A stretch of DNA of 64,000 nucleotides from Candidatus Falkowbacteria bacterium. GTDB lineage: Bacteria > Patescibacteriota > Patescibacteriia > CAIXNZ01. Each line of letters starts with the position of its first letter. The stretch's first letter is position 1. Below are positions 9,701 through 59,715 of this stretch, piece after piece. The notes under the pieces are model-generated. The model made no database searches and was not told the origin of the DNA. It saw nothing but the letters and a program-made list of their open reading frames with translations. A program made the position numbers and the translations under genes. The DNA is taken from the NCBI GenBank assembly GCA_963774955.1, contig CAVZGV010000004.1:383779-447778 (forward strand). The letters are read 5' to 3'.

Positions 9701-9964
9701 ATGATAAATGTTTGTACTGGTTGTTTAAGGTTAAATTCTTTAGGACAGAAAAAGTGCTTACATTGCCGTGATACCTGTCAGGCAATGGAATCACAAGACT
9801 ATGGCAGGTTTATGCTCAGAAGCCATGGAAAAAAGGGTCAAAAGGAGGAGCAAGCAGAGAATGAAGATTCAGAGGACAATATCAGTGAGTATCCGGACTT
9901 GAAGGTTTTTGAGGATTGTGCTAATCTTAACAATCCTTGGGAACTTTATCTACTCAGGCCATGA
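9701..9964 (+). CDS. Small zinc-ribbon (zinc_ribbon_2-like, C-x2-C-x10-C-x2-C) protein with acidic tail
   Basis: Consensus SD (taaggagggaaaATG). Motif CTGCLRLNSLGQKKCLHC. Paralogous to the next ORF. Confidence 0.5.
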   Translation: MINVCTGCLRLNSLGQKKCLHCRDTCQAMESQDYGRFMLRSHGKKGQKEEQAENEDSEDNISEYPDLKVFEDCANLNNPWELYLLRP

Positions 9965-10703: not shown

Positions 10704-10777
10704 CAGGGGATAGCTTAAGTAAAGCGCCAAAACTACCCTTTTGGAGACTGTTGGTTCAAATCCAGCTCCCCTGACCA
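10704..10777 (+). tRNA. tRNA gene, isotype undetermined (anticodon arm cannot form a 5-bp stem with a 7-nt loop)
   Basis: Acceptor CAGGGGA/UCCCCUG, U8A9, T-arm GUUGG-UUCAAAU-CCAGC, encoded ACCA. The anticodon region CCAAA-ACUACCCU-UUUGG gives an 8-nt loop (or a 6-bp stem with a 6-nt loop). The D-loop lacks GG. Confidence 0.5.
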
Positions 10778-10805: not shown

Positions 10806-11078
10806 ATGCCAGCGGAAAAGGGACCAGATCATGTAAGCGTAGCGGAGTTTTTTGCCCTGGAAAGTTTTGGAGACAGGCTGGCTGACCAACTTGACCGGCT
10901 AAATACTCGGCATAGCAATTATTGCCAGGAAACAGTCGCGCTCAAGCAGTCATTGGCTAATGGCGGTCGACGCCAAGAATTGAGGCAAGCACGGTTGCAT
11001 GATTTAGAAACGCGACTTTTACCCCAGTTACAGGCACGCCTGCATTCATTGCAGGATCAAAAAATCGGGCTTTATTAA
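10806..11078 (+). CDS. Hypothetical small protein (90 aa), GC-richer, coiled-coil-like
   Basis: Consensus SD (aaaaggagggttacacATG). Local GC is about 50% against a ~34% background. Followed by a terminator. Confidence 0.5.
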   Translation: MPAEKGPDHVSVAEFFALESFGDRLADQLDRLNTRHSNYCQETVALKQSLANGGRRQELRQARLHDLETRLLPQLQARLHSLQDQKIGLY

Positions 11079-13085: not shown

Positions 13086-13163
13086 AATTGGTAAAATGAC
13101 AAATAACAAAATTTAAAAATCAAAAAAATATCAAATATCAAAATTTAAATAACAAATAGGAAC

Positions 13164-14285
13164 ATGGGTAAAATTTTAAGCGCCTTGAGTGAAAAAAGGC
13201 GCTGGGAATTTAAAAATTGGAATTGGCATATCAATTTTGGCTTCAATGTTGAGAAAATTTTATTTGCCAAAACTTTGGCAACTTTATTACGTTCTAAAAT
13301 CAATATTGCTGACTCCTTGGTTATCTTGGAAGCGCAATTTTCCGGGAGTTTTAAACAAGCAGTCGGTGCTGTAAGGAAAGATGTGGAAAACGGTCAGACG
13401 TTATCCAGCGCTTTGGCCAAACATCCAAAATATTTTAATAAAATTTATGTTGGCCTGGTTAATGTCGGTGAAAAAAGCGGTCGTTTAGTCGAGTGTTTGC
13501 AAAGAGTTGCGAAACAGCAGGAAAAAGATTTGCAATTATCACGCAGTATCCAGGCAGCGTCTTTATACCCGGCCATTATTTTTATCTGTTTAGCTGGTTT
13601 GGCAGCCTTATTAAGTTATTATATCTTGCCTCAGTTGATTATTGTTTTTACCTCTTTTAATATGCCATTGCCATGGACGACTCTGGCCTTGTTATGGTTA
13701 GCTGAATTTATCAGGCAATATGGCCCATTACTTCTGATTTTAATAATTGCGGGTATTTTACTTTTTCGCTTTTTGGTTAACCAAGAAAAAATTAGGCCTC
13801 ATTGGCAGGGTTTTTTAATCAGCCTGCCGTTTTTGGGAGAACTTTTGAAAAAATGGAATCTGGCGCGCTTTTGCCGGATTTTAGGCACATTATTGGAAAG
13901 CGGTGTTTCTATTCACGAAGCATTAGATACTGCAATTGAAAGTTTGAGTAATGAAGTCTACAGAAATTTATTGAAAAAAGTTAAGGCCAAAGTATTGGGT
14001 GGCTTGTCTTTGGGTGAGGCTATTGAAACTTTATATAAAATTGATATTTTCCCGCGGTTTGTTTTTCAGTTAATTAGTGTCGGTGAACGAACCGGTACGC
14101 TGGAAGAAAACTTAATTTATCTGGCTGAATTTTACGAGGATGAAGTGGAAAATATCAGTAAAAACATGGCCAGCATTATTGAACCGGTTTTATTAATTGT
14201 TATCGGTATTATAGTGGCCGTGATTGGTTCCGCGATTATTTCGCCGATTTATGAGTTTATCGCTACCCTGAGCGAAAGCCTCTAA
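13164..14285 (+). CDS. pilC: Type IV pilus inner-membrane platform protein PilC (GspF family)
   Basis: Two GspF-like repeats, three TM segments and conserved ..GE.SG.L. motifs. Confidence 0.85.
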   Translation: MGKILSALSEKRRWEFKNWNWHINFGFNVEKILFAKTLATLLRSKINIADSLVILEAQFSGSFKQAVGAVRKDVENGQTLSSALAKHPKYFNKIYVGLVNVGEKSGRLVECLQRVAKQQEKDLQLSRSIQAASLYPAIIFICLAGLAALLSYYILPQLIIVFTSFNMPLPWTTLALLWLAEFIRQYGPLLLILIIAGILLFRFLVNQEKIRPHWQGFLISLPFLGELLKKWNLARFCRILGTLLESGVSIHEALDTAIESLSNEVYRNLLKKVKAKVLGGLSLGEAIETLYKIDIFPRFVFQLISVGERTGTLEENLIYLAEFYEDEVENISKNMASIIEPVLLIVIGIIVAVIGSAIISPIYEFIATLSESL

Positions 14286-20170: not shown

Positions 20171-20212
20171 TTTAAAAAAAACCTCGGGAAAGTTCCCGAG
20201 GTTTTGTTTTTA
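20171..20212. terminator. Bidirectional rho-independent terminator between the pilin gene (+) and the L,D-transpeptidase gene (-)
   Basis: aaaaaaaacctcggg-aaagtt-cccgaggttttgttttt. Confidence 0.6.
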
Positions 20213-21088
20213 GGGATAGGGTTTGATTGTGACCCTAGTCCTGACTTGAATGAAGTTTTTGCTCAGCCATTCGGCATCCGAGTAGAATAAGCGGACACAG
20301 CCATGGCTGGCATTGGCTCCTGGCAAATTGCCTGCATGAAAGGCATAATTTTCCTGAAAGAACATGGCATACGGCATACTGGCGCAGTTTGAGCCAGTGC
20401 AGCCTTTGGGGTAACGACTAGATCTATACTTCGGACCTTCTTTGCGAATGATCCGAAATTCTCCCACCCTGGTTCGGCAGGAACGACCGACATCAGCGCA
20501 ATAATCTTTACCGCCCACACCAGGCCCCCAGCGTACAAGCTTTCCGGCTTCGTTATAGGCGGCATAGGCAAGCAGGTTTGGATCCCAGATGATTAATTTT
20601 TCACCCAGCGTGTCCGTGAAGTAGGGAAAGGGTGAATAATCCATGAAGGTTTTGTCCTTCATCTTCCTGGGAACTGCCAGTTCATCGCCTTTTTTCAGCT
20701 TGATGTTTCGACGGTTAATTTTCATGACAATTTCGCGTTCAAGGGTATTGCCCCAGAGAATTTCCCATGATTCCAGGACTTCTTTGTCTTGAAGTTTAAC
20801 GCCTACTTCTGTTTCCACCTGGTCGGTGATTACGGTTATGACGACAGTATGACAGAAAAAGTTGACCGTATCCCCGCAAAGTTCAGTCCCATATTTTTTT
20901 GTGAGAATTTCAGGTTTGATCGGGGCGATGCTTTGCATTGTGTTGCCGTCTTGTATTTCATCTGTGGCTGGGGGTAGCGGCAGGGAAGAGCATTGATTCG
21001 CTTCTTCCTCTTCCAGTTGAGCGTAAATAAATAAAGGAACAATCAGGAGCGCGCACATAAAGAGCATTACCAGCCAGACTTTTTTCAT
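20210..21088 (-). CDS. L,D-transpeptidase (YkuD domain), secreted
   Basis: Signal peptide and catalytic motif HAGNLPGANASHGCVRL. Confidence 0.8.
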   Translation of the reverse strand: MKKVWLVMLFMCALLIVPLFIYAQLEEEEANQCSSLPLPPATDEIQDGNTMQSIAPIKPEILTKKYGTELCGDTVNFFCHTVVITVITDQVETEVGVKLQDKEVLESWEILWGNTLEREIVMKINRRNIKLKKGDELAVPRKMKDKTFMDYSPFPYFTDTLGEKLIIWDPNLLAYAAYNEAGKLVRWGPGVGGKDYCADVGRSCRTRVGEFRIIRKEGPKYRSSRYPKGCTGSNCASMPYAMFFQENYAFHAGNLPGANASHGCVRLFYSDAEWLSKNFIQVRTRVTIKPYP

Positions 21089-23261: not shown

Positions 23262-23843
23262 ATGCGCAGACCAAATGAAAAAAAATTTCTCGGCTGGGGG
23301 CTTTTAGGGGTTTTACTTTCAGTCATTGAGTGGGTTAATTATTGTGGGGTTAAGGAAATCAGGGGCGGTTATTATGTCAGCTGTTCTGGTTCTCCGACTG
23401 TCTCACAGCTTACAAAAAAGAGCGGATTAAAGATTGCGCACAGCGGAGTTTATGAAAAGCTGAGAAACAAAAAAATGTCGGACCAGCCAGATATTGAATT
23501 GTTCCTGGTGCATCTGAATAGGATAGTTGGCCTTGATGGAGTTCTTTTTGTTTTGTCCGCACTTGGCTTTGAATCTTCCAACTGGGCACACTTAATTTTA
23601 TTTGGTTCAATGTTTCCAGATGTACAAAAGGAGTTTCCGGTGTTTGCTTTGGGTACATGCCTGTCATATTTTTGGGCTGGCCAGGAGTATCTTTACCTTT
23701 TTGTTGACAAAGATGTTCGCATTTTTGGCGCCACAGATAAAATGGGTAATGAGCATTATACTACGGAATTCAGAAAGTTTACTCGCTTTCTGGTTGTGCG
23801 TACAGCCAAGCGCCCTGCTTCAGAGGTTACTCAATGGGGTTAA
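23262..23843 (+). CDS. Hypothetical protein (193 aa)
   Basis: Consensus SD (caggaggagggaaaATG), unusual for this genome. No recognisable motif. Confidence 0.5.
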   Translation: MRRPNEKKFLGWGLLGVLLSVIEWVNYCGVKEIRGGYYVSCSGSPTVSQLTKKSGLKIAHSGVYEKLRNKKMSDQPDIELFLVHLNRIVGLDGVLFVLSALGFESSNWAHLILFGSMFPDVQKEFPVFALGTCLSYFWAGQEYLYLFVDKDVRIFGATDKMGNEHYTTEFRKFTRFLVVRTAKRPASEVTQWG

Positions 23844-30183: not shown

Positions 30184-32269
30184 ATGCCCCGTGAGTATAC
30201 ACTAGAAAAAACAAGAAATATCGGCATTATGGCCCATATTGACGCTGGTAAAACAACGGTTACCGAGCGTGTTTTATTTTATACCGGTAAAAAACATAAA
30301 ATTGGTGAAGTTCATGAAGGGGCTGCTGAAATGGATTGGATGGAACAGGAAAAAGAAAGAGGCATTACCATTACTGCCGCTGCTACTACTTGTTTTTGGA
30401 AAGATCACCGTATTAATATCATTGATACTCCCGGTCACGTTGATTTTACGGTAGAAGTCGAAAGGTCATTGCGCGTTTTAGACGGTGCAGTGGCGGTTTT
30501 TGACGGTTCTCAGGGTGTAGAACCTCAATCAGAAACAGTTTGGCATCAGGCAGCCAAATATGATGTTCCCAGGATTGCTTTTGTAAATAAAATGGATAAA
30601 ATGGGAGCAGATTTTTATATGACGTTTGGATTCAATTGCTGAACGTTTGTCAACTCATGCTGCGGCAGTGCAATTGCCTATCGGTGCTGAAGAAACTTTC
30701 TGTGGTCTGGTTGATTTATTAGATCGTCAAGGCTTATAAATTTGAAGGTGAATATGGCCAAAATGTTATAGAAATATCAATCCCGGAAGATATGAAAGAT
30801 AAGGTAGAAAAATACCGCAAAATTTTACTGGAAAAAGTTGCGGAAAATGATGAGGATATGATGAATAAATATTTAGCCGGACGAAGAATTGGATATTGAT
30901 CAGATTACGTCAGGTAATGCGTAAAGCTACAATATCTAATGATTTTCATCCGGTTTTGTGCGGTTCAGCTTTGAAAAATATCGGTGTACAACGAATGCTT
31001 GATGCGGTGGTATGCTTATTTACCATCACCGCTTGATGTACCTCCGATTATAGGTAAAAATCCTGATACAGGCAATGAGGAAAAAAGAGAAAGCTACTGA
31101 TGAAGCGCCTTTTGCCGCACTTGCCTTTAAATTAGCCACTGATCCTTTTGTCGGTAAATTAGTCTTTTTTCGTGTTTATTCGGGCAGTCTAAAAGCAGGT
31201 TCTTATGTTTTAAATACCAAGACAGGAAATAAAGAAAGAATTGGTCGTATTGTACGCTTGCATGCTAATTCCCGAGAAGATGTTGATGAGGTTTTTTCCG
31301 GAGAAATTGCAGCAGCTATTGGTTTGAAAAATACTGTAACGGGCAATACTTTGTGCGATGAAAAATACCCTGATAATTTTGGAAGAAATTATTTTTCCGG
31401 AACCGGTTATTTCCGTGGCGATTGAACCAAAAACCAAGGCTGACCAGGAAAAAATGGGCATGGCTATGCAGAAATTGGCCGAAGAAGATCCGACTTTTAA
31501 GATTCACACTGATGAGGAAACCTTACAGACTATTATTTCCGGTATGGGCGAATTACATTTGGATATTATTGTTGACCGTATGAAAAGAGAATTTAAAGTT
31601 GAAGCCAATGTCGGTGCGCCTCAGGTTGCTTATAAAGAAACCATCAAAGGTGGCGGCTGAAGGCGAAGGTAAATATATCAAACAGTCAGGTGGTCGTGGT
31701 CAATATGGTCATTGTTGGTTAAAAGTTGAACCGCGTGATCGAGGTGAAGGCTTTGAATTTGTTGATGAAATTAAAGGCGGCGTTATTCCCCGGGAATTTA
31801 TTCCTGCCGATTGAAAAAGGTGTTAAAGAATCTTTAACTAAAGGTATTTTGGCCGGTTATCCGGTTGTTGATATTAAAGGCTACTGTATATGACGGTTCT
31901 TATCATGACGTTGATTCTTCTGAAGTAGCTTTTAAAATTGCCGGTTCTATGGCTTTTTTTGAAGCCGCCAGAAAGGCTAAGCCAATTATCTTGGAACCGA
32001 TTATGAAGATTGAAGTAACTACCCCGGAGCAATTTATGGGTGATGTTATTGGTGATTTGAATTCCAAACGCGCTCAGATTTCTCAAATGACCGAGAAAGT
32101 TAAATTAAAGGTAATTGACGGTTTAGTTCCTCTTTCAGAAATGTTTGGTTATGCCACCTCTTTAAGGTCTTTGACTCAGGGACGTGCAAATTATGCCATG
32201 GAATTTGATCATTATCAGGAAGTTCCATCTAATGTTGCGCAAAAGATTATTGAAGGAAAAAAGAAATAA
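30184..32269 (+). pseudogene. fusA: Elongation factor G with at least 8 frameshifts between ~30620 and ~31870 (N-terminal G domain and C-terminal domains intact)
   Basis: ORF-track pieces 30184-30642, 31075-31425, 31358-31660, 31599-31814 and 31865-32269 are all EF-G in different frames. Manual translation of 30640-31075 gives further EF-G segments ([120 protein letters not shown]), each in a shifted frame. Confidence 0.85.
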
Positions 32270-32844: not shown

Positions 32845-33723
32845 ATGGAAGCGAAAAAGCTGGTGATGAATAATCAGATTCCTCGAGATTTTGATCTCTT
32901 GGATCCGGAAACTCGGCAACTGGCTTTAGCGATCGGCGGGCGCAAAGTTAATGGCACCAATTTTCATTTGGGTCATTTGGCCAAGAACTTAAAACGTTCT
33001 GAAGTCGCAGTCTGGGCAGCCAGACGAGTGATCCGTAGCGAGGCCATCGGTATCAACTGGGAACATCTTCTTGATGATATCGTTGAAACTTGTCTCAAGG
33101 AGTTCCACTATGAAACCTATCGTCATTTAAAGCGCATGCACGGGATTATGGCAGAAGAATTGAAGTACTTGCAACATCATCAGCCGGCGCAGATGGATGA
33201 TCGCGGCATCAAAGAGTTCCGAGAGATGGAGCATTTTCCTCTGGGTGAGGAAGAACAAGCTCAGATGAAATGGGCTTCTTCATTCCACGATATCTGTCGC
33301 ATGAGTTACAAGGTTTCTTACTGGAAGAAGAAAGGGAAATTTACTCCCTTGCAAAGAAAACAACTTGATTTTCATGCTCGGAACTTCTTTTTCCTGGGAC
33401 AATTGTTTAATGTTTACCAGGAAGTCATTGCCTTGTCAGTCTTGCATCACTATCCCAATAAAGGCTATCCTGACAACGGAATTATCGCTAAGTTAACGCC
33501 TTTTTTGGCGCAGCCTAAATTCCAGTACATGTTGAATTGGCTGGTTACCAACGACGTTTATACTGGTGCAACCGATGATCGAGGCTACCGAGATCAGCCA
33601 TACACCCATGAGCAGGCAATTGGCCAAACAATGCCTACTGAATTGGGTCCTGTTGGCATGGCTTGGGTACCGTTTATCGAAGCGATAAAACAACCAGGTG
33701 ACAAGGTGGTTTGCCCCGCTTAA
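32845..33723 (+). CDS. Hypothetical protein (292 aa), GC-richer, possible HD-type metal-dependent phosphohydrolase
   Basis: Consensus SD (aaaaaggaggtgttctaaaATG). H..H / HD / HH / D residues spaced as in HD-domain proteins (FHLGH, FHDICR, VLHHY, ATDD). GC about 47%. Inserted between fusA and tuf. Confidence 0.5.
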   Translation: MEAKKLVMNNQIPRDFDLLDPETRQLALAIGGRKVNGTNFHLGHLAKNLKRSEVAVWAARRVIRSEAIGINWEHLLDDIVETCLKEFHYETYRHLKRMHGIMAEELKYLQHHQPAQMDDRGIKEFREMEHFPLGEEEQAQMKWASSFHDICRMSYKVSYWKKKGKFTPLQRKQLDFHARNFFFLGQLFNVYQEVIALSVLHHYPNKGYPDNGIIAKLTPFLAQPKFQYMLNWLVTNDVYTGATDDRGYRDQPYTHEQAIGQTMPTELGPVGMAWVPFIEAIKQPGDKVVCPA

Positions 33724-45424: not shown

Positions 45425-45907
45425 ATGGCTTTGAATTTATACAATTTAAAACCTGCTAAAGGCGCAAAAAAACGAAAGATTAGAGTGGGTCGTGGTTTGT
45501 CTTCAGGCCATGGTACTTATTCCGGTCGTGGCGCCAAAGGACAGCGAGCCAGAAGCGGTGGTAAGGGCGGTCTTAAGGCCTTTGGATTAAAAGGCATTAT
45601 TCAAAGTACTCCTAAATTGGGAGGGTTTAGAAGTTTAAAGTCCAAATTGGAGATTGTTAATTTGTCTGATTTAGAAAAAAATTTTAAAGATGGTGATATA
45701 ATTACCCCCGGGTTATTAAAAGACAAGGGATTAATCAATGATACTAAAAAGGGAGTTAAAATATTAGGCGACGGTAAATTAACTAAAAAGTTGGTAGTTA
45801 AAGTTAATAAAATTTCCGAATCAGGCAAGGCTATGATAGAAAAAAATGGCGGCCAAGTGATTTTATTAGGCGCTGAAAGTTCTGATGAGCCTAAAGACAA
45901 TAAGTAA
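45425..45907 (+). CDS. rplO: 50S ribosomal protein L15 (directly follows rpsE; no L30 gene)
   Basis: MALNLYNLKPAKGAKKRKIRVGRG... Confidence 0.85.
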   Translation: MALNLYNLKPAKGAKKRKIRVGRGLSSGHGTYSGRGAKGQRARSGGKGGLKAFGLKGIIQSTPKLGGFRSLKSKLEIVNLSDLEKNFKDGDIITPGLLKDKGLINDTKKGVKILGDGKLTKKLVVKVNKISESGKAMIEKNGGQVILLGAESSDEPKDNK

Positions 45908-50768: not shown

Positions 50769-50883
50769 AGCTAAATTTCGCTATAATTTTAGCAAAAATT
50801 TCGTCTTGACAGGGCGGTTTTTTTTTGTTAAGGTTGGTTCAGTAATTTTGGTCTTTACAAAAATAACCAGAGGAGGGGATGAC

Positions 50884-51873
50884 ATGAAAAAATGGTGGGG
50901 TGATCATGATGGGATTGATTTCCCACATGTGGTTTTGTCTCAGCAATTTGATCGGCAACATCTGGAGCAGTTGTTCAAGCTTACTGCGATTCTTAAAGAA
51001 CAGGTGCCCAAAGGAACGATAAAAGATTGGCTGCAAGGTACAATTTTAGCCGCTATTTTTTACGAAGCATCAACCAGAACTCGTTTAAGTTTCGAAACCG
51101 CGGCTTTAAGGCTGGGTGCTCAGGTGGTATCCAGTGAAAACGCCAAGGAGTTTTCTTCGGCCATCAAGGGTGAGACGCTTGAGGACACCGCAAGGATTAT
51201 GTCTTCATACGCCGATGTCATGGTTTTGCGTCATTCTGATGATGATGCGGCAATCCGGATAGCCAAAGTCCCGGGTTGTATCCCTATTCTCAACGGTGGT
51301 TCTGGCATGGGACAGCATCCGACGCAATCATTGCTGGATGTTTTTACCATTTACGAGCATTTCGGTTACGTTGATGGTTTGAAAGTCGCTATTGTAGGAG
51401 ATTTATTGCACGGACGCACCGTCCGTTCTCTGGCCTATCTGCTTTCAAAGTTCAATGACGTGGAAATCTTTTTTATCGCACCGCCTATTTGTCAAATCAG
51501 TTTTGATATCAAAGAGCATCTTGATGAAAAGGGAATTAAGTGGCACGAGACAGAAGATTTCCGACAGGTAGCCAGAGAAGTGGATGTGATTTACATGACT
51601 CGTTATCAGCTGGAGCGGACATCTTCACCTGAAGAAAAAGATCAGCTCATGGAGGCGAGTCACAGTCACCGCATGAATACAGAAGTTGCAAACTCCATGA
51701 AGTCTAAGGCGATTATTCTGCATCCTTTGCCTCGAATCGAGGAAATCCGCTGGAACGTAGATAATAATCCGCGGGCCAAATATTTCCTCCAGGCCGCAAA
51801 TGGCGTTCACGTGCGTATGGCTTTGCTTTTGGCCATATTTAATTCTAACATGGCCGAGAAGCTTTTGGTTTAG
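50884..51873 (+). CDS. pyrB: Aspartate carbamoyltransferase catalytic subunit
   Basis: STRTRLSFE, HPTQ and HPLP motifs. SD gaggagggg upstream. The ATG at 50884 is preferred over the SD-less extension to 50806. Confidence 0.9.
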   Translation: MKKWWGDHDGIDFPHVVLSQQFDRQHLEQLFKLTAILKEQVPKGTIKDWLQGTILAAIFYEASTRTRLSFETAALRLGAQVVSSENAKEFSSAIKGETLEDTARIMSSYADVMVLRHSDDDAAIRIAKVPGCIPILNGGSGMGQHPTQSLLDVFTIYEHFGYVDGLKVAIVGDLLHGRTVRSLAYLLSKFNDVEIFFIAPPICQISFDIKEHLDEKGIKWHETEDFRQVAREVDVIYMTRYQLERTSSPEEKDQLMEASHSHRMNTEVANSMKSKAIILHPLPRIEEIRWNVDNNPRAKYFLQAANGVHVRMALLLAIFNSNMAEKLLV

Positions 51874-51929
51874 AAATCAAGGAGGGCCCGCGCCCTCCTT
51901 AACTTTTGTAAAAAAACAAGGAGGCACTG

Positions 51930-52055
51930 ATGGCACCATCTTGTAATCAAGAGGACAGGAAGAAATCAAAAAAGAAAAGAAAGAAAAATGACGAGCGCGG
52001 TAAACGCAGGCGCAAAGGCTGGAAAGCCAAGTGCGCCGGCAGGCGGGGGAGGTGA
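51930..52055 (+). CDS. Small highly basic ORF (41 aa, MAPSCNQEDRKKSKKKRKKNDERGKRRRKGWKAKCAGRRGR) between pyrB and pyrC
   Basis: SD acaaggaggcactgATG. Its stop overlaps the pyrC SD. Could be a leader/coupling peptide or a genuine small basic protein. Confidence 0.25.
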   Translation: MAPSCNQEDRKKSKKKRKKNDERGKRRRKGWKAKCAGRRGR

Positions 52056-52058
52056 GAC

Positions 52059-53312
52059 ATGGCCAGCATATTGTTGAATGGTGGAAGTGTGGTTGATCCA
52101 CAAAATAGCACCATACGTAAAAGAGACATCTGGATTGAAAACGGCAAAGTCACCAAGATAGACATTAGCAGATCAATTAGTCCGATTGGAGACAATTGGG
52201 AGGTTATTAATTGCAACGGTCTTCTGGTTGTTCCGGGTCTGATTGATATGCATGTGCATTTTCGTACACCTGGCCAGGAACATAAGGAAACTTTGACCAC
52301 CGGCAGTATGGCTGCTTTAGCCGGAGGTTTTACCACAGTTGTTGGCATGGCCAATACTTCACCGGCCATTGATAATCCCGAAGCTTTACATCAGCTTCTG
52401 ATCATGGCGGAAAGGGAATCACTGGTGAATTATTTTCAGGTGGCAGCAGCAACGGCTGGCAGAAAAGGACAGGAACTTTCGGATCTGACTGCCTTAGTAG
52501 CTGCAGGTGCCATTGCTTTTTCTGATGATGGTGACGGCATTCAGGATCCGGAGATTTTACTGAAGGCAATTTTCCAAGCCCGGAGTCATTTTAAACCCAT
52601 TCTGCTTCACTGTCAGGATAAACGCTTTGATCCTTATGACAAAAGAGCAGAGATCGAGGACGTCTCATTGGCCTTGAGAATTGCTGAAGTTTTCAAGCGG
52701 CCGATCCATATACAGCACGTTTCGCTGACTGAATCGGTTCAGCTGATCCGTGAAGCTAAGGTCAGAGGAGTCCAAGTTACCTGTGAAACAGCACCGCATT
52801 ATTTGGCCTTGACCCAGGCGGATTTCAAACGCATTGGACCAAACGCCAAGATGAATCCGCCGCTTCGAGGTGAAGCTGACCGACTGGCAGTGATACAGGG
52901 ATTGGTTGACGGGACGATTGACGTGATTGCCACTGATCACGCCCCTCACTCTGATGAAGAAAAACAGAGTGATAAGCCGCCCTTTGGGATTATTGGCCTT
53001 GAAACGGCTGTGCCAGTTGTTTTTTCTCATCTGGGTAAGTGGTTAACAGTTCCGCAAATTATTGCCAAGCTGACCATCAATCCTGCCAGAATTTTGAAAC
53101 TGGAGAATCAAGGCATAATTAAGGAAAGCTGGCAGGGTGCTTCAGCTGACATTACAGTCATTGACCCCAAAATGCGTAAGGTGCTTAAAGCCGAAGATTT
53201 AAAGTCCAGGTCACATAATAGTCCCTGGCTCGGCAAGCGCATGCAGACCTGGCCGGTGATGACCATTCATAATGGCAAAATAATGATGAGATTTGGAGAA
53301 ATCATCATTTGA
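52059..53312 (+). CDS. pyrC: Dihydroorotase
   Basis: VPGLIDMHVHFRTPG, DHAPH. Uses a TGA stop. Confidence 0.9.
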   Translation: MASILLNGGSVVDPQNSTIRKRDIWIENGKVTKIDISRSISPIGDNWEVINCNGLLVVPGLIDMHVHFRTPGQEHKETLTTGSMAALAGGFTTVVGMANTSPAIDNPEALHQLLIMAERESLVNYFQVAAATAGRKGQELSDLTALVAAGAIAFSDDGDGIQDPEILLKAIFQARSHFKPILLHCQDKRFDPYDKRAEIEDVSLALRIAEVFKRPIHIQHVSLTESVQLIREAKVRGVQVTCETAPHYLALTQADFKRIGPNAKMNPPLRGEADRLAVIQGLVDGTIDVIATDHAPHSDEEKQSDKPPFGIIGLETAVPVVFSHLGKWLTVPQIIAKLTINPARILKLENQGIIKESWQGASADITVIDPKMRKVLKAEDLKSRSHNSPWLGKRMQTWPVMTIHNGKIMMRFGEIII

Positions 53313-53593
53313 TCTCATTTAAGGACGTTCGTAAGGGCGTCCTTTTATAATTAATGACTAATAACCAATAATCAATAACCAAATAAATTTTAATTTAAAA
53401 TAATTAAACAATTTTAGTATTTGGTATTTATTATTTGTTATTGTTTGGTCATTGGAATTTGGTTATTGGTTATTCAAAATGAAGTGATTTTCTAAGATGG
53501 CAATACCTTGACTTAAGGTATTCATTTTGCTAAGGTTTGGTTACAAAAAGTTATTTGAAAAGTCAAGAAAAAATAGGATAAAAGGAGGCTTTC

Positions 53594-54400
53594 ATGGATC
53601 CAAAAATTCAGGTCTGTCAGGCAGAGGTGCTTTCCAATGAGCGAAAGGCCAAAAATATCTGGGAACTAAAATTAGATCCTAGGCTTGATTTGCATGAAGA
53701 TGATATTTTTATGCCCGGCCAGTTTGTTTGTCTGGAGCCTTTAGATCCAGCATCAACCATGGCCAGGCCATTCAGTATTTCTTACGTCAGCATGAGCAGC
53801 GGTACTTTTAAGCTGCTTTATAAGGTCGTAGGCAAAAATACGGAATTAATGACCGGCTTAAATCCAGGTCAACAAATCAAATTCTGGGGGCCTTTGGGCC
53901 AGGAATTTTTGCCTGATTCTCTGGAGTACGGTGAAGTTTGGCTGGTCGGTGGTGGCATTGGTATTGCCCCGTTGATCTACTACGAAAAAGCGATTACAGA
54001 ATTACAGGGCGGTACGGCCCGGGTTTTTTATGGCAGCAAAACCAAGGAAGAAGTAATTCCTCTGGATTTGTACACTCGCGAGCCTTTAGTAATTGCCACT
54101 GATGACGGCTCGGCCGGCTTTCCGGGTTTTGTTCCTGACTTGATTAATGGATTTTTAAAAGGAACAATCAGAGAAAAAGTTCTGGTCATTACCTGCGGGC
54201 CAAACATCATGATGAAAAGGGTGGCGGAAATTTGTGCTGAGCGCCAAATTGAATGCCATGTCATTTTGGAAACCATTATGGCCTGCGGTTTGAACAACTG
54301 CAAGGGCTGCACCATCAAAACTACGTCCGGCATGAAAAGTATCTGTCATGACGGTCCTGTCTTTCCGGCTCAGGAGGTAATTTGGAATGAAGTCATTTGA
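53594..54400 (+). CDS. pyrK: Dihydroorotate dehydrogenase electron-transfer subunit (FAD/NAD-binding, 2Fe-2S)
   Basis: Ferredoxin-reductase-like fold; C-terminal C..C..C....C cluster (CGLNNCKGC...C). Confidence 0.8.
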   Translation: MDPKIQVCQAEVLSNERKAKNIWELKLDPRLDLHEDDIFMPGQFVCLEPLDPASTMARPFSISYVSMSSGTFKLLYKVVGKNTELMTGLNPGQQIKFWGPLGQEFLPDSLEYGEVWLVGGGIGIAPLIYYEKAITELQGGTARVFYGSKTKEEVIPLDLYTREPLVIATDDGSAGFPGFVPDLINGFLKGTIREKVLVITCGPNIMMKRVAEICAERQIECHVILETIMACGLNNCKGCTIKTTSGMKSICHDGPVFPAQEVIWNEVI

Positions 54401-55295
54401 TTTGAGCGTTCAAATTGGCAGCCTGAAACTGAAAAATCCAATCATGAATGCTTCAGGCTGTTTTGATCCTGAACAAATGTGCAGGCTCAATGGTATGGAT
54501 TTAAGTCGCTTCGGGGCTTTGGTTTCTAAGGGTACAACTTTAGAACCCCGGTCGGGTAATCCTCAACCGCGTATCATGGAAACAGCTAGCGGTATGATCA
54601 ACTTCATTGGCCTGGAAAATCCTGGCGTTGACGTTTTGATCGATCTCAAATTGCCGTTTATGGCGCAGTTTGGGGTGCCGATCATAGTCAATCTTTCAGG
54701 GTTTAACATTCAGGATTATGCAGTAATGGCCGAAAGGCTCAATGATATTCCTTATGTTTCAGCCCTGGAAATCAATATCTCCTGTCCCAATGTTAAGGGC
54801 GGGGGCATTGTTTTTGGCAGTGATCCTGTGGTGGCTTCGGATGTGGTCAGGCAAGTCAGAAAGCTGACCAAGCTGCCATTGATTGTAAAGCTGACACCCA
54901 ATGTCACCAATATCGAGGACATTGCCCAGGCAGTGGTTGAAGTCGGAGCTGACGCAATTTCCCTGATCAATACTCTGCGAGGTCTGTTCATTTACAAGGG
55001 TAAACTTGTTCAGGGTGGACTTTCTGGACCAGCCATCAAACCTAATGCCTTATGGCTGATTAATAAGGTTGCCCAGACTGTCAATGTGCCGATCATCGGC
55101 ATGGGCGGCATCAGCACGTTGAACGACATCTTCGAATTTTTCCAGGTCGGTGCTTCAGCTGTGGCCATCGGCACAGCCAATTTCAAAAATCCGCTCATCA
55201 TGATGGAACTGATTGACGGGTTAGAAAAACATTGTCTGGAAAACGGTCTGGCCAACATTGACCAGGTTAAAGAAAAGATAAAAGGAGGAAAGTGA
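54387..55295 (+). CDS. pyrD: Dihydroorotate dehydrogenase catalytic subunit (class 1B)
   Basis: NASGCFDP, GGISTLNDIFEFFQVGASAVAIGTA. Confidence 0.9.
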   Translation: MKSFDLSVQIGSLKLKNPIMNASGCFDPEQMCRLNGMDLSRFGALVSKGTTLEPRSGNPQPRIMETASGMINFIGLENPGVDVLIDLKLPFMAQFGVPIIVNLSGFNIQDYAVMAERLNDIPYVSALEINISCPNVKGGGIVFGSDPVVASDVVRQVRKLTKLPLIVKLTPNVTNIEDIAQAVVEVGADAISLINTLRGLFIYKGKLVQGGLSGPAIKPNALWLINKVAQTVNVPIIGMGGISTLNDIFEFFQVGASAVAIGTANFKNPLIMMELIDGLEKHCLENGLANIDQVKEKIKGGK

Positions 55296-56077
55296 TGGAG
55301 AGACCGAAAGGGGAAAAACGGATTATTGTGGCACTGGATGTGCCGGATCTTGACCGGGCAGGTGACTTAGTCAAACAATTGGCTTCGCATGTGGGTATGT
55401 TCAAGGTCGGCTTGTACCTGATTACATCAGTCGGCTTGCCCCAAATCGTGGACTGGTTCCGAAAGCAGGTCGGTTCGGCGGACCAACTCTTTGCCGACCT
55501 TAAACTGCATGACATCCCCAATACCATTGGCACGGCAGCCAGGGCAGCTTCCGAGCTCAGCGTGGGCATGGTGAATGTTCATGCCAGCAGTGGCTTGAAC
55601 GGTATGATAGCCGCAGTCGAGAATTCCAAATCCGGTCCTGATACTGGCGGACCAGAGCAGTATCGTGACACTTTGGTTTTAGCGGTGACAGTCTTGACTT
55701 CGCACGAAGAAAACGAAGGGCATCTGATTTTTGGAAGTCCGACCAAAGCCAAGGTGCTGGAATTCGCTCTCTGGGCCAAGCTGGCTGGGTGTGACGGCTT
55801 AATCTGTTCGCCTCAAGAGCTGGCGCTTTTGCGGCAGCAGAGTGTTCTCAAGGACATGTTGATGGTTACTCCTGGTGTGCGTCCTGAATGGGCAGCAGCC
55901 GGTGACCAGAAGCGAATCATGACCCCAGGAGAAGCAGTAAAGGCAGGAGCTGATTATTTAGTCATCGGTCGGCCCATCACCAGGCCGCCGGAAAGCATTG
56001 GCGATCCGGTGAAAGCCGCCCAACTGATAGTCGAAGAAATTACGGCGGCTGAAGCAGAAATGGACAAGAAAAAGTAG
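55292..56077 (+). CDS. pyrF: Orotidine 5'-phosphate decarboxylase (long type)
   Basis: IIVALDVPD, DLKLHDIPNT. Confidence 0.85.
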   Translation: MMERPKGEKRIIVALDVPDLDRAGDLVKQLASHVGMFKVGLYLITSVGLPQIVDWFRKQVGSADQLFADLKLHDIPNTIGTAARAASELSVGMVNVHASSGLNGMIAAVENSKSGPDTGGPEQYRDTLVLAVTVLTSHEENEGHLIFGSPTKAKVLEFALWAKLAGCDGLICSPQELALLRQQSVLKDMLMVTPGVRPEWAAAGDQKRIMTPGEAVKAGADYLVIGRPITRPPESIGDPVKAAQLIVEEITAAEAEMDKKK

Positions 56078-56227
56078 TTTAATAAGGAGGAATTTTTATT
56101 AAAGGGATTCTCGCAAGAGGGTCCCTTTTTTCTTTTAGCTATTTGCCAAAATTTAATAGATTTGATAAGGTTGAAAAAATCAGGGGTTTGTTCAATATCA
56201 AAAGATAAAAAAGAAGGAGGAATTGGT

Positions 56228-56995
56228 ATGCAAGAATCCAGAGTTGTGGAAACGGTCAATAATGGAGGCGTCTTTACCTTGACTCCGGCGGATTTTGCCG
56301 GGCGTCGTATGACCACCAGCGAGGCAGTGGCAATTTTTGGATCTTTCGGCGCGTTTTGGGAATATCCGGGTGAGCCGCGAGCTGACAGACCACATGCTCT
56401 TTTGAAATCAGGTCTGCATAGTAATGGCTTTATCAATTGTCGGGCGGTACTGGATTTTCCCAGATTGTGTATGCTTTTTGCCGAGGAGATGCTCAAAACT
56501 GTCGAGGAATCGATTGTTATCACTGATCTTCTGCCGTTGGGCTTTGTTGCCTCCTCAGCCTATTCAGCTTTGGATTTGGGGTTTTGTTTGACCTGGCTTT
56601 TAAGTCAAAAGTACAATACCCAAATCAAACGGGTCATGGCGGAAAAAGATGCGTCCGGTAATCCTACGGTTATCCGCGGCGGCATTGATTCCACTCTGAG
56701 CGGCTTGGTCATTAATGAGTTGATGACCACAGCGGCAGGGTCGACTTGGGAAACGAAGGAAGCGGTCTTGAAGAGTAATGGTGATAAGCCAGCACCGTTA
56801 GTACTGTCTTCTTCTTTCGTGCTGATGCACCGGTCACGCGATTTGAAGCTTCCGGACGATTCACCTGTTGTGCCTGTTTTTCATTTCAATATCGATAATT
56901 TTGCCAAGGACAATTGTCCTTATTGTCAGGCCGGCTCCGAAGCCATTAAGCCCAAAGTGGGGGATAACTGGCAAAGGCTACACGGCCTAATCTAG
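56228..56995 (+). CDS. Phosphoribosyltransferase-family protein, putative orotate phosphoribosyltransferase (pyrE-like, atypical long form)
   Basis: PRPP-binding-like motif GLVINELMTTAAGST. Last gene of the pyr cluster, after pyrF. SD aagaaggaggaattggtATG. Confidence 0.45.
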   Translation: MQESRVVETVNNGGVFTLTPADFAGRRMTTSEAVAIFGSFGAFWEYPGEPRADRPHALLKSGLHSNGFINCRAVLDFPRLCMLFAEEMLKTVEESIVITDLLPLGFVASSAYSALDLGFCLTWLLSQKYNTQIKRVMAEKDASGNPTVIRGGIDSTLSGLVINELMTTAAGSTWETKEAVLKSNGDKPAPLVLSSSFVLMHRSRDLKLPDDSPVVPVFHFNIDNFAKDNCPYCQAGSEAIKPKVGDNWQRLHGLI

Positions 56996-57002
56996 TTCGA
57001 AC

Positions 57003-57037
57003 AAAACCGCTTGTCGCGAGACAAGCGGTTTTTCATT
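57003..57037 (+). terminator. Rho-independent terminator ending the pyr operon
   Basis: aaaaccgcttgtc-gcga-gacaagcggttttt. Confidence 0.6.
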
Positions 57038-57122
57038 TGACATTGAAAGTTAAATTTGGTAATTTAAGGCTAAACAGCGTCGCTGTCGGTTACTATTCTC
57101 AGGCTCCTTTAAGGAGGGAACG

Positions 57123-57557
57123 ATGAAAATAATATACATGTTCGTCGATTACAAGAAATTTGACATGTTTCCCGAGGATGATTTATTTGACACTAGCTCC
57201 CATAAATATCATTATTTACACCTTGAAGGCCGGGAGTGGACCGTAGGTTGGAATGAAGAGAATAAAATTTTTCTAACCAATCGACCGATTGTCAGAAAAG
57301 AACCGATTGCGGAGCAGGCTCTTTCGGGGCCGCCGATCGAAGAAGAAAAGGAAATTGATATGGCAGATGCTCATTTTTTAGTCACAGTTGAGGCAACAAC
57401 GGAGCATCCACTTTATCAACTGATGATAGGGGCCTATGAAATGCTAAAACAAAAGGCTGACCTAGAAACAGCCTTGAAGTCAAAACACGAACAGCTGGAA
57501 ACATTGTTAAAAAGTTTCCCAAAAACTATCAGTATAGACACCAAGGGCTCCTCCTAA
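57123..57557 (+). CDS. Hypothetical protein (144 aa)
   Basis: Consensus SD (ttaaggagggaacgATG). Followed by the terminator gggctcc-tcctaac-ggagcctttttt at 57539-57575. Confidence 0.5.
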   Translation: MKIIYMFVDYKKFDMFPEDDLFDTSSHKYHYLHLEGREWTVGWNEENKIFLTNRPIVRKEPIAEQALSGPPIEEEKEIDMADAHFLVTVEATTEHPLYQLMIGAYEMLKQKADLETALKSKHEQLETLLKSFPKTISIDTKGSS

Positions 57558-57600
57558 CGGAGCCTTTTTTACTTGACTAAATTTGGCAATTTGTTATAAT

Positions 57601-57830
57601 AATGTTACAAAACTGATGATCCTAACTGACATTAGGGGAGGTGCGGGAAGAAGCCTTTTAGGTGGTAGAACCCGCCGTGAATCTGCGTTAATGACATAAG
57701 AGAGTGTCCTCCGAAGCTTTAGCGAAGGAGGAAATCAAGGTGGTACCGCGGAAAAAATTCCGTCCTTGAATCTGTTCAGCTTTTTATTGTATAACAGATT
57801 TGAAGACGGAATTTTTTGTTTAAGTTTAAA
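57601..57830 (+). promoter_or_regulatory. T-box riboswitch leader (Asp-specific, specifier GAC) with promoter TTGACT-16-TATAAT (57573-57600) and terminator/antiterminator
   Basis: T-box consensus AAUCAAGGUGGUACCGCGG at ~57735-57751. Specifier-loop candidate cuGACAuu at ~57622. A ~20-bp terminator stem (aattccgtccttgaatctgtt...aacagatttgaagacggaatt) followed by tttttt. Confidence 0.7.
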
Positions 57831-57935: not shown

Positions 57936-59715
57936 ATGCTACGTACCAATACATGCGGAGAACTAACTAAAAAACAAGTCGGTAAAGAAGACTACCCTAT
58001 GCGGTTGGGTCAATTCCAGGCGCGATCATGGCGGCATTATTTTTATTGATTTGCGCGATCGTTATGGTTTAACCCAGATTAAATTTGATCCGAAAATTTC
58101 CCAGGAGGCCTGGAATGAGGCCGATAAGGTTCAGGCCAGAATGGGTTTTGAAAGTTAGCGGGGAAGTTTTAGGCCGGCCTAAGGATATGGTTAATAATAA
58201 TTTAGCGACCGGCGAGGTGGAAGTGGCGATATCGGAAATTGAAATTTTGTCTGAGGCTAAAACACCGCCATTTGAAATTGATCAGGATAAAATGGTCAAT
58301 GAGGATTTAAGCGCTTAAAATACCGATTTTTGGATTTGCGCCACCAGCGTTTGCAGAAAATCATGGCTGATCGCGATCAATTGATAACTTATGTGCGTGA
58401 ATATTTTCATAAAAAAGAATTTATTGAAATTCAGACCCCAATTTTGGCAAATTCTTCACCTGAAGGCGCCCGCGATTATTTGGTGCCTTCAAGAATTCAT
58501 CCGGGTAAATTTTATGCCTTACCCCAGGCACCACAGCAATTTAAACAGCTATTAATGGTCGCTGGTTTTGATCGTTACTTTCAGATTGCGCCTTGTTTTC
58601 GTGATGAAGATCCTCGCGCAGACCGTCATCCTGGTGAATTTTATCAGATTGATTTGGAAATGTCTTTTGTAGAGCAGGAAGATATCTGGCAAATGGTTGA
58701 GCCGTTGATGGTTGAGCTGACTGATAAATTTTCCGATAAAAAAATAATTACCAACCCTTTCCCAGAATAACCTACCAAGAAGCTTTGGAAAAATATGGTT
58801 CAGATAAGCCTGATTTGACGTTTTGATTTGGAAATTCAACCAATCACGTGAGTTGGTCAAAGATTGCGGTTTTGCGGTTTTTAGCGAGGCTATAAAAAAT
58901 AAAGGAGTAGTTCATGCTTTGAAAATTGACTAATGGCGGTAAATTTAGTCGTAAAGAAATTGATGAACTTAACTGAATTGGCTAAAAGCAAAGGCGCTAA
59001 AGGTTTAGCCTATATTATTGTCAAAGATAAAGAATTGCAATCACCGTTGATTAAATTTTTAGGTGATGATTTATCCCAGAAAATTGTTAAAGAAGTTAAA
59101 GCCAAAGCCGGTGATATTATATTTTTCGGAGCAGATAACTGGAAAACAGTTTGTTCAGCTTTGGGGGCGGTCAGAAATGAGTGCGGCAGTCGTTTAGGCC
59201 TCAAGGATCCGAAAAAAGCAGCCTGGCTGTGGGTAATTGATTTTCCCATGTATGATTATTCAGAACTGGAACACGGTCGGATTGATTTTTCGCACAATCC
59301 CTTTTCCATGCCACAGGGCGGTTTGAAAGCTTTGGAAGATAAAGATCCATTGGAAATTTTGGCGCATCAATATGATTTGGTCTGCAACGGCTTTGAAATT
59401 TCTTCAGGCGCCATTAGAAACCATCAGCCGGAAATTATGTATAAAGCTTTTGCCATCGCGGGTTATACCAAGGAAGAAGTTGATGCCAAATTTGGTCATA
59501 TGATTAAGGCCTTTGAATTTGGGGCGCCGCCTCATGGCGGTATTGCACCGGGTCTGGATCGTTTATTAATGGTACTCTGGGATTTACCAAGTATCCGGGA
59601 TATTTACGCCTTTCCGAAAAACGGATCAGCTCAGGATGCTATGTTGGGTGCGCCCAGCGAAGTTGAGATCAAGCAATTGAAGGAATTGCATATTAAATTG
59701 GATTTAGAGAAATAG
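57936..59715 (+). pseudogene. aspS: Aspartate--tRNA ligase with at least 4 frameshifts
   Basis: AspRS sequence runs continuously but switches frame near 58050, 58320, 58770 and 58925. The ORF-track pieces 58085-58318, 58330-58770 and 58933-59715 are all AspRS. Class II motifs FRDED and GGIAPGLDRL are present. Confidence 0.8.

Follow-up and report, generated by a model that had tools for sequence, protein, structure and literature searches.

A 64,000-nucleotide stretch of contig CAVZGV010000004.1 (assembly GCA_963774955.1, Candidatus Falkowbacteria bacterium), referred to below as the window, carries a co-directional cluster of genes for pyrimidine biosynthesis between recO and aspS. This cluster is probably a long-resident possession of a Buchananbacteria-like lineage of the Parcubacteria, within the candidate phyla radiation (CPR; Patescibacteria), and not a recent import. 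In this phylum, de novo nucleotide synthesis is missing from 93% of genomes, and such genes as remain are phylogenetically scattered (bioRxiv 10.64898/2026.06.21.733656). An earlier note on this DNA took the "foreign" look of the cluster as a pointer to acquisition from a donor that uses Shine–Dalgarno (SD) sites. The cluster does differ from the core genes, but a recent import does not follow from this, since related genomes share the site, the trees agree with those of the flanking genes, and the composition of the pyr genes follows that of the host with a slope of 0.84. In these genomes, which are otherwise poor in SD sites, the pyr genes share as conserved traits an elevated GC content at third codon positions (GC3), poor codon adaptation, SD sites, stop codons other than TAA and a promoter type of their own.

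Gene content of the cluster

Gene calls combine a list of open reading frames (ORFs), Pfam and NCBIfam scans and the raw sequence. The cluster is made up as follows:

50806-57567, forward strand: the cluster as a whole, with pyrB, a 41-aa basic ORF, pyrC, pyrK, pyrD, pyrF, a phosphoribosyltransferase (PRTase) gene and an ORFan, all co-directional
50884-51873, forward strand: pyrB, predicted aspartate carbamoyltransferase (ATCase) catalytic chain, 329 aa (TIGR00670)
51930-52055, forward strand: small, very basic ORF of 41 aa (MAPSCNQEDRKKSKKKRKKNDERGKRRRKGWKAKCAGRRGR) with its own SD site and a stop inside the pyrC SD site
52059-53312, forward strand: pyrC, predicted dihydroorotase of the long Bacillus type, 417 aa (TIGR00857)
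53344-53483, no strand assigned: AT-rich imperfect inverted repeat in the pyrC–pyrK spacer (43-nt arms 72% complementary; 18-nt arms 94%)
53594-54400, forward strand: pyrK, predicted electron-transfer subunit of a class 1B dihydroorotate dehydrogenase (DHODH), 268 aa (PF10418)
54387-55295, forward strand: pyrD, predicted class 1B DHODH catalytic subunit, 302 aa (NF005574)
55295-56077, forward strand: pyrF, predicted orotidine monophosphate (OMP) decarboxylase, 260 aa (NF001273)
56228-56995, forward strand: pyrE-like orotate phosphoribosyltransferase (OPRT) of a long CPR type, 255 aa, assigned from profile, fold and context
57123-57557, forward strand: ORFan of 144 aa with a consensus SD site, between the PRTase gene and the aspS leader

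Family scans and motifs confirm the identities that the earlier note had given to pyrB, pyrC, pyrK, pyrD and pyrF, with small corrections to the coordinates. PyrB reaches 312 bits with TIGR00670 (cut-off 237), matches both PF02729 and PF00185 and shows the motifs STRTR, HPTQ and HPLP. Its gene starts with the ATG behind GAGGAGGGG, 7 nt downstream of a GGAGG site; a longer ORF opening with TTG at 50806 was rejected in favour of this ATG at 50884. The 329-aa length recurs in an independent assembly, as does the 260-aa length of PyrF in independent assemblies, and no pyrI stands beside pyrB in the cluster. PyrC scores 381 bits with TIGR00857 (pyrC_multi; cut-off 279) and has the metal-site motifs HVH (DMHVHFR) and DHAPH (ATDHAPH). 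PyrK exceeds the threshold of PF10418 (DHODB_Fe-S_bind; 44.9 bits against 23.9) and has a C-terminal Cys cluster, while its best NCBIfam model, NF000798, stays below the equivalog cut-off (172 bits against 219). PyrD (NF005574, 356 bits; cut-off 269) carries the ISCPN active-site Cys motif and PyrF (NF001273, 220 bits; cut-off 193) the sequence DLKLHDIPNT (DxKxxD). The overlapping or coupled starts that had been noticed earlier were found again: pyrK and pyrD overlap by 14 nt, and pyrD and pyrF by 1 nt, with the pyrF ATG placed over the pyrD stop (TGATG).

The cluster encodes predicted, working-looking enzymes for five of the six steps to uridine monophosphate (UMP). PyrB, without PyrI, would act as ATCase, PyrC as dihydroorotase and PyrF as OMP decarboxylase; PyrK and PyrD would form an NAD-linked class 1B DHODH, which needs no quinone and would suit a fermentative CPR cell; and the orotate step would be taken by a divergent OPRT of the HP1257/Thermus type. 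Among the annotated ORFs of the 64-kb window there is no carA or carB, carbamate kinase, pyrG or pyrH. Since no carbamoyl-phosphate synthase gene is present in the cluster or the window, the description of the cluster as a complete de novo operon is not justified, and carbamoyl phosphate would have to be supplied by a gene outside the window or in some other way.

The pyrC–pyrK spacer (281 bp, 53313-53593) is AT-rich, and its sequence is not common to the relatives described below. Its inverted repeat is built of AATAACCAATAA-like units, which match seven times in the window against 1.6 expected, four of the matches lying in the spacer. The repeat may be a small inserted element or an array of binding sites.

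A signature distinct from that of the core genes

Within the cluster, the GC content per kilobase is 0.46-0.52 against about 0.33-0.40 around it, with abrupt shifts at 50.8 kb and 57.6 kb. GC3 amounts to 0.45-0.57 in the six pyr genes and averages 0.34 in the other 67 ORFs (Mann–Whitney p=9e-5). A comparison of codon adaptation, which had been proposed as a check, gave an index relative to the ribosomal-protein genes of 0.46-0.58 for pyr and 0.63 +/- 0.04 for the other genes (p=2.5e-6). All six pyr genes have GGAGG or AGGAG 5-9 nt before the start, against 7 of the 67 others (Fisher p=1e-5); candidate starts were scanned over the first 35 codons, by one rule for both gene classes. The leaders of core genes, those of every ribosomal-protein gene in the window included, are A/T-rich and lack SD sites. 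The stop codons are 4 TGA, 3 TAG and 1 TAA in the cluster and 44 TAA, 8 TAG and 1 TGA in the core genes. These statistics bear out the contrast in composition, SD sites and stop codons, TGA included, that had been drawn from inspection. An alternative genetic code with TGA as a sense codon was considered and rejected: aspS is broken by frameshifts instead of TGA codons in frame, and core genes, adk among them, do stop at TGA.

Outside the cluster, the window has six further small islets that bear SD sites and are richer in GC: 9701-9964, 10806-11078, 20210-21088 (reverse strand), 23262-23843, 32845-33723 and the ORFan at 57123-57557. They are mostly ORFans or accessory genes. The seventh non-pyr gene scored as SD-bearing (45425-45907) is a core ribosomal-protein gene with a GC3 of 0.30 and a weak AGGAG match. 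As a group, the SD-bearing genes outside pyr are also GC-richer (GC3 0.42 vs 0.33, p=0.0014). The first five islets have a GC3 of 0.38-0.51 and no promoter of the TGnTAAGGT type described below; four of them have no Pfam family, and 20210-21088 encodes a YkuD L,D-transpeptidase. The islet at 10806-11078 adjoins a tRNA, and one islet lies between fusA and tuf. A 2033-aa ORF at 1116-7217, whose sole Pfam match is a weak one to DUF4025, has a GC content of 0.44 with a GC3 of only 0.29; its GC content is due to amino-acid composition and not to foreign-like codon usage.

The cluster in related genomes

A scan with a profile of the PRTase family, keeping one genome per species, gave 39 loci. In six related genomes (L002 to L006 and L009), the cluster lies at the same recO–aspS site, in the order recO-[pyrB-small ORF-pyrC]-pyrK-pyrD-pyrF-PRTase-aspS. 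These genomes are labelled 'Parcubacteria' and 'Buchananbacteria', apart from two evidently mislabelled metagenome-assembled genomes. Identities to the window proteins are 63-80% for RecO, 52-76% for RuvX, 52-67% for PyrB, 52-71% for PyrC, 45-68% for PyrK, 56-74% for PyrD and 55-66% for the PRTase; across the whole syntenic set, the flanking proteins are 52-95% and the Pyr proteins 41-84% identical. RecO and RuvX divide the genomes into the window, L004 and L002 on one side and L003, L005, L009 and L006 on the other, and the PyrC, PyrD and PRTase trees agree with this division. The earlier note had named two observations as speaking against a foreign origin, phylogenies congruent with CPR relatives and a similar composition throughout the genome; the first was found for these three proteins, and the compositional contrast persists. 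The best database matches of PyrD come from Parcubacteria, Buchananbacteria and Falkowbacteria (65-77%), and the best outside the CPR from Tumebacillus, Clostridia, Pelotomaculum and Desulfuromonadales (52-54%). In a neighbour-joining tree, the PyrD sequences of the CPR, a Nealsonbacteria sequence included, form one cluster apart from these non-CPR matches.

The signature accompanies the genes in every syntenic relative, where the GC3 of pyr exceeds that of the flanks by 0.07-0.2; even in the very AT-rich L003 and L005, it is 0.26-0.36 against 0.19-0.21. SD sites precede 37 of 39 pyr genes in the syntenic genomes and 10 of 127 flank genes (p=2.5e-25). Outside the clade, the counts are 35 of 58 and 43 of 430 (p=5e-17). 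Over 33 CPR loci, pyr GC3 equals 0.84 times flank GC3 plus 0.14 (r=0.77), and the offset averages +0.077 (Wilcoxon p=3e-5). A pyr GC3 that converges on a constant value near 0.45 whatever the host was therefore rejected: pyr GC3 follows the host, with an offset. Because the pyr genes track host composition this closely, they appear to be long resident, and both the offset and the SD sites would be maintained rather than left over.

Residence at a fixed site has not kept the individual genes from being exchanged. L003 and L005 are nearly identical in RecO (95%), RuvX (94%) and PyrB (92%), yet only 47% identical in PyrK and 60% in PyrD (pyrK–pyrD at 4126-5902 in L003 and 5586-7272 in L005). To judge from these identities, the pyrK–pyrD pair of one of the two has been replaced by a divergent CPR allele. 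Three subtypes of PyrF are found, one in the window, L004, L003 and L005, a second, 41-44% identical, in L002, and a long type 2 in L006 and L009. The window PyrB is nearer to those of L006 and L009 (67 and 65%) than to that of L004 (56%). On this pattern of identities, pyrK–pyrD and pyrF have been swapped between CPR lineages, as probably has pyrB.

In L002, pyrB and pyrC are gone and pyrK, pyrD, pyrF and pyrE are kept, and many distant CPR lineages have only pyrF and the PRTase gene. This suggests a pathway that is eroding from the front, and the eroded lineages may rely on imported or salvaged dihydroorotate or orotate. A pyrimidine 5'-nucleotidase gene of the UMPH-1 family lies just upstream of ruvX in L002 (4370-5245), L005 (1027-1878) and L006 (284-1147) and is missing from the window and from L004.

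Origin of the cluster

For long residence, the proposed course of events is that the pyr genes belong to an accessory gene pool that brings its own expression signals, that they have been resident since before the clade diverged, and that they have been patched repeatedly by gene-for-gene replacement from other CPR lineages. Such a pool would be the most likely origin of the signature.

Strict vertical inheritance from a CPR ancestor with patchy loss and no lateral exchange is an unlikely alternative. It would ascribe the signature to selection on a class of genes, for example for SD-dependent, tightly controlled expression at a low level that needs GC-richer, structured mRNAs. The parallel offset over 33 loci, the SD enrichment of pyr across the phylum, the conserved promoter type and the monophyly of CPR PyrD all agree with it, and the Bacillus-like gene order could be ancestral to a group that holds both the CPR and the Firmicutes, as in some proposed bacterial phylogenies. 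The replacements within the cluster (pyrK–pyrD in L003 or L005, the three pyrF subtypes, the incongruent PyrB) nevertheless contradict the absence of exchange. The other SD-bearing, GC-richer islets are moreover ORFans or accessory genes, one of them beside a tRNA, and nucleotide-synthesis genes are scattered in the phylum (bioRxiv 10.64898/2026.06.21.733656).

A recent acquisition of the whole operon from an SD-using donor outside the CPR, with its traits not yet ameliorated, is very improbable. It would account for the strong contrasts in GC3, codon adaptation, SD sites and stop codons, and would agree with the Firmicutes-like gene order and the presence of Firmicutes among the best non-CPR matches of PyrD. 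A fresh import would not, however, show a GC3 that tracks that of the host, nor is it expected at the same site and with the same signature in six relatives whose flanks are only 52-95% identical. Congruent PyrC, PyrD and PRTase trees, a monophyletic CPR PyrD with only 52-54% identity to non-CPR proteins, and a PRTase family that is almost wholly confined to the CPR likewise speak against it, and no integrase, tRNA or direct repeat was found at the cluster borders in the window. Of the marks by which a recent island is recognised, atypical composition and codon usage are thus present, and an empty site in relatives, nesting among donor sequences and mobility genes or a tRNA at the borders are absent.

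A chimeric or contaminated assembly, with a GC-richer fragment joined into a CPR contig, can be dismissed in spite of the abrupt compositional shifts and the frameshifted aspS and fusA of the window, as the recO–pyrB and PRTase–ORFan junctions are found again in two short-read assemblies made independently from other sequencing runs, whose contigs carry the exact PyrD and PRTase sequences with the same neighbours (ribosomal genes through recO–pyrB to the ORFan), and the same arrangement is found in six other genomes from different studies.

Several points weigh against long residence of a functional, separately signalled cluster. The trees are neighbour-joining trees of few taxa without bootstrap, and the SD scoring rule may inflate the counts in GC-richer genes. 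Promoters, terminators and SD use are read at the level of consensus sequences. About half of the Parcubacteria 16S genes lack an anti-SD motif (Tsurumaki et al. 2022, PMC9297842), and the 3' end of the host 16S lies outside the window, so that the host may be unable to use the SD sites. Simple neutral amelioration does not account for a GC3 offset that outlasts the saturation of synonymous differences; the gene pool and selection are both hypotheses for this offset. An ancient acquisition from a Firmicutes-like donor is not separable from vertical descent on these data. Finally, since no source of carbamoyl phosphate is seen in the window, the first two enzymes may lack their substrate.

Promoters, terminators and regulation

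The predicted signals of the cluster, all on the forward strand, are:

50806-50834: promoter-like site P1 before pyrB, TTGACA-N14-TGTTAAGGT, extended -10 with the unusual hexamer TAAGGT
51879-51900: terminator-like hairpin T1, 5 nt after the pyrB stop, AAGGAGGGCC-CGCG-CCCTCCTT with a weak U tract (-17.6 kcal/mol, z -3.55)
53321-53344: terminator-like hairpin T2 after pyrC (-14.8 kcal/mol, z -3.85)
53508-53536: promoter-like site P2 before pyrK, TTGACT-N14-TGCTAAGGT
56101-56128: terminator-like hairpin T3 after pyrF (-17.5 kcal/mol, z -3.49)
56143-56171: promoter-like site P3 before the PRTase gene, TTGCCA-N14-TGATAAGGT
57003-57032: terminator hairpin T4 after the PRTase gene (-22.4 kcal/mol, z -6.18)
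57543-57567: terminator-like hairpin T5 over the ORFan stop (-13.6 kcal/mol, z -3.02)

Three matches to the pattern TTGMC-N15-TGNTAAGGT were found in the window, where 0.18 would be expected, and each precedes a pyr unit (pyrB, pyrK and the PRTase gene). The site orthologous to P1 is conserved in all six syntenic genomes. That of P2 is the same in L002, L004 and L006 and occurs as TAAGTT variants in L003, L005 and L009. At the position of P3, TGATAAGGT is found in L002, L004 and L006, and L009 has TGCTAAGGT with a -35 spacing outside the search pattern. Over the seven genomes, the motif TTGACn-N14-TGnTAAGGT occurs 15 times, always on the coding strand; 14 occurrences stand before a pyr unit or at a remnant site (the promoter at the pyrB site of L002 now precedes a 99-aa ORF), and the remaining one before an unannotated SD-bearing gene in L006. 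None of the seven genomes has the TGnTAAGGT motif before a recognisable core gene, and the promoter-like sites of core genes carry TATAAT or TAAAAT. As the three -10 positions that matter most are intact in TAAGGT, and TGn always stands before it, a putative extended -10 promoter of the sigma-70 type is the simplest reading. In the pyrF–PRTase spacer of L006 (9158-9611), the terminator, TGnTAAGGT promoter and leader are duplicated in tandem, and a further TGCTAAGGT promoter of this genome precedes an unannotated 256-aa SD-bearing gene after aspS (12782-13595).

The five stem-loops have U tracts and range from -13.6 to -22.4 kcal/mol (z -3.0 to -6.2). Both internal hairpins that the earlier note had described are present, at corrected positions (51879-51900 for 51883-51908, and 53321-53344 for 53320-53348). 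Counterparts of T1 are found in L003, L004, L005, L006 and L009, with a compensatory stem change from GGAGGG:CCCTCC to GGGGG:CCCCC, each copy having been folded genome by genome rather than by counting pairs in an alignment; in all six genomes with pyrB, this hairpin begins 4-8 nt after the pyrB stop. T2 also occurs in L002, where it follows the small ORF.

At least three transcription units would result: P1-pyrB-T1-small ORF-pyrC-T2, P2-pyrK-pyrD-pyrF-T3 and P3-pyrE-T4. Each would start at a promoter of the shared extended -10 type and end at an intrinsic terminator; each cistron has a consensus SD site, and neighbouring cistrons would be translationally coupled. Downstream of T1, no promoter motif was found ahead of the small ORF or pyrC; expression of pyrC therefore needs read-through, which would be partial at T1.

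In the region 50.6-58.0 kb, no PyrR RNA was matched at the Rfam gathering threshold or at E <= 5, and there is no pyrR-like ORF in or beside the cluster, where the upstream neighbour is recO. The only RNA-regulator family found in this region is a sub-threshold T-box before aspS, a leader-like element at 57607-57770 that scores 62.5 bits (E 4e-12) against a gathering score of 93 and is preceded by a promoter-like site, TTGACT-N16-TATAAT, at 57573-57600.

A sub-mechanism that is compatible with long residence, and possible though doubtful, is that the segment from the pyrB stop through T1 and the small ORF acts as an attenuator coupled to translation, of the Escherichia coli rph-pyrE type. A ribosome ending pyrB would mask the 5' arm of T1, and transcription would read through into the small ORF and pyrC when low UTP slows RNA polymerase. 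The constant distance of the hairpin from the pyrB stop with its compensatory stem changes, the lack of a promoter motif from T1 to pyrC and the missing PyrR site fit this idea. Terminators near stop codons are common here, however (T2 and T4 also lie 8 nt from stops), a U-rich pause region is not demonstrated, and the small ORF, which is kept in L002 without pyrB and pyrC, follows the hairpin instead of spanning it. With the E. coli rph-pyrE and pyrBI attenuators, the segment shares a terminator a few nucleotides after the stop of a translated upstream ORF in a pyrimidine operon; the resemblance is one of layout only.

The orotate phosphoribosyltransferase

The PRTase consists of a ~45-aa N-terminal extension, the phosphoribosyl pyrophosphate (PRPP) loop VINELMTTAAGST and a C-terminal CPYC...GSEAIKPK. 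It falls well below the TIGR01367 cut-off (45.9 bits vs 150.25) and matches no Pfam family at E <= 0.001. A profile of 23 family members, in contrast, finds the Helicobacter OPRT HP1257 (PDB 4paw) over nearly its full length at E 7.5e-19, and ten further OPRT entries. The AF2 (AlphaFold) model (pLDDT 94.1, pTM 0.90) has OPRTs at all Foldseek ranks from 1 to 40. The tentative pyrE assignment of the earlier note holds on these profile and fold matches. The gene directly follows pyrF in the window and in most of the 39 CPR loci. The family has 82 hits in the database and, at one genome per species, 39 loci, almost all of which carry a Patescibacteria label. Near-invariant in the family are the PRPP loop VINELMTTxxGST, in which N-E takes the place of the usual acidic pair, and the C-terminal CP-x-C...AIKPK.

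The protein is best described as a predicted long, CPR-type branch of the HP1257/Thermus OPRT group. HP1257 and the TIGR01367 group (pyrE_Therm) give its best profile match and its best fold match (TM-score 0.73-0.75 on the target) and share the motifs H-x-LLxSGxHSN, the TTG of the PRPP loop and the C-terminal CP-x-C...AIKP. The window PRTase differs in its ~24% identity, its 45.9 bits against 150, the ~45-residue N-terminal extension and the N-E pair, and its family occurs almost only in Patescibacteria.

The small basic ORF and the ORFan

The extremely basic 41-aa ORF between pyrB and pyrC, first seen by inspection, is conserved in relatives. Orthologues of 38-51 aa with their own SD site and the motif KKxDNRKKxxRxNW/FKxR are present in L002, L004, L006 and L009 and absent from L003 and L005. 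The proportion of nonsynonymous differences (pN) is 0.14-0.51 and that of synonymous differences (pS) 0.78-1.0 (saturated), giving a pN/pS of 0.16-0.53. To judge from this substitution pattern, the ORF is a real, conserved protein-coding gene under purifying selection. It belongs to no Pfam or NCBIfam family; phmmer returned 0 matches among 1.84 billion representative proteins, and a local hidden Markov model matches in five loci of the clade only. Its retention in L002 despite the loss of pyrB and pyrC suggests a function of its own. As guesses, it may bind nucleic acid or the ribosome, or serve in the coupling or regulation of pyrC.

The 144-aa ORFan is absent from that position in L002, L003 and L006 and present in two independent assemblies. 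It has no Pfam or NCBIfam family, and a search of 5.8 billion clusters found only the ORFan itself.

Other features of the window

The surroundings are those of a typical CPR genome, with rpsL-rpsG-fusA-tuf, the S10-spc ribosomal cluster, secY-adk-map, SRAP, ruvX and recO; the window also holds type IV pilus genes, rubrerythrin and desulfoferrodoxin. Downstream of the cluster, frameshifts divide aspS (57936-59715) into four or five pieces at least, and the junctions between these do not lie at long homopolymers; the gene is intact in L002, L003 and L006 (589-591 aa). Both independent short-read contigs seem to end just after the ORFan, near the aspS leader, judging from the last genes listed. 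The broken aspS could be due to assembly indels in a strain-variable region or be a real pseudogene. The gene for EF-G, fusA (30184-32269), is fragmented as well, with the GTPase domain, domain 2 and domains IV/C in the ORFs 30184-30642, 31075-31425 and 31865-32269; since fusA is essential and yet broken, local assembly or consensus errors are indicated. A tRNA-like gene at 10704-10777, 105 bp after tRNA-Val, scores 50 bits with the Rfam tRNA model and has no standard anticodon according to ARAGORN, which lists it as 'tRNA-???' with the anticodon 'ac'.

Comparison with known systems

The closest parallel in layout is the Bacillus subtilis pyr operon (pyrR-pyrP-pyrB-pyrC-pyrAA-pyrAB-pyrK-pyrD-pyrF-pyrE), which has the shared genes in the same order, B, C, K, D, F, E, together with a class 1B DHODH with PyrK, a long dihydroorotase, an ATCase without regulatory chain and overlapping cistrons. 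The window cluster differs in having no pyrR, pyrP or PyrR-binding attenuators, and no carA/carB (pyrAA/pyrAB) between pyrC and pyrK, where the AT-rich spacer lies. It is also divided into at least three promoter–terminator units, contains the extra basic ORF of 38-51 aa and has a divergent long OPRT in place of pyrE. The PyrDb–PyrK heterotetramer of Lactococcus and Bacillus is matched by the PyrD equivalog with its Cys motif, by the FAD, NAD and Fe-S domains of PyrK and by the overlap of the two genes; the window PyrK stays below the cut-off, however, and PyrD is only ~53% identical to its closest Firmicutes counterpart. In lacking SD sites, the core genes of the window resemble those of other SD-poor lineages such as Bacteroidetes and of the Parcubacteria without anti-SD motif (PMC9297842). 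Unlike in those lineages, pyr and a handful of accessory ORFs form a minority class that has retained optimally spaced consensus SD sites, as pyr also does in many other CPR lineages. No description of such an SD-bearing gene class in the CPR, or of this cluster, was found in the literature searched.

Significance

The pathway itself is ordinary. The new details are the stable, separate signalling of its genes, their promoter motif, the small basic protein and the CPR-type OPRT subfamily. A more far-reaching proposal, which at present seems rather improbable, is that pyr and a few accessory genes form a separately signalled class, marked by a promoter type of its own (TGnTAAGGT), consensus SD sites and GC-richer, poorly adapted codons, for which a second, SD-dependent mode of initiation serves as a regulatory layer that selection maintains across the Patescibacteria, with the polybasic protein of about 40 aa as a hitherto undescribed component tied to the control of the pyrimidine genes.

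The locus is an example of a minority CPR lineage that has retained most of the steps to UMP, without carAB, at one constant position in the chromosome. It also calls for caution in the detection of genomic islands, as a class of genes can be atypical in GC content, codon usage, SD sites and stop codons stably and throughout a clade, without having been transferred recently. The pyr promoter motif, the phylum-wide SD enrichment of pyr, the CPR OPRT family and the small basic protein offer leads on gene expression in bacteria that are poor in SD sites.

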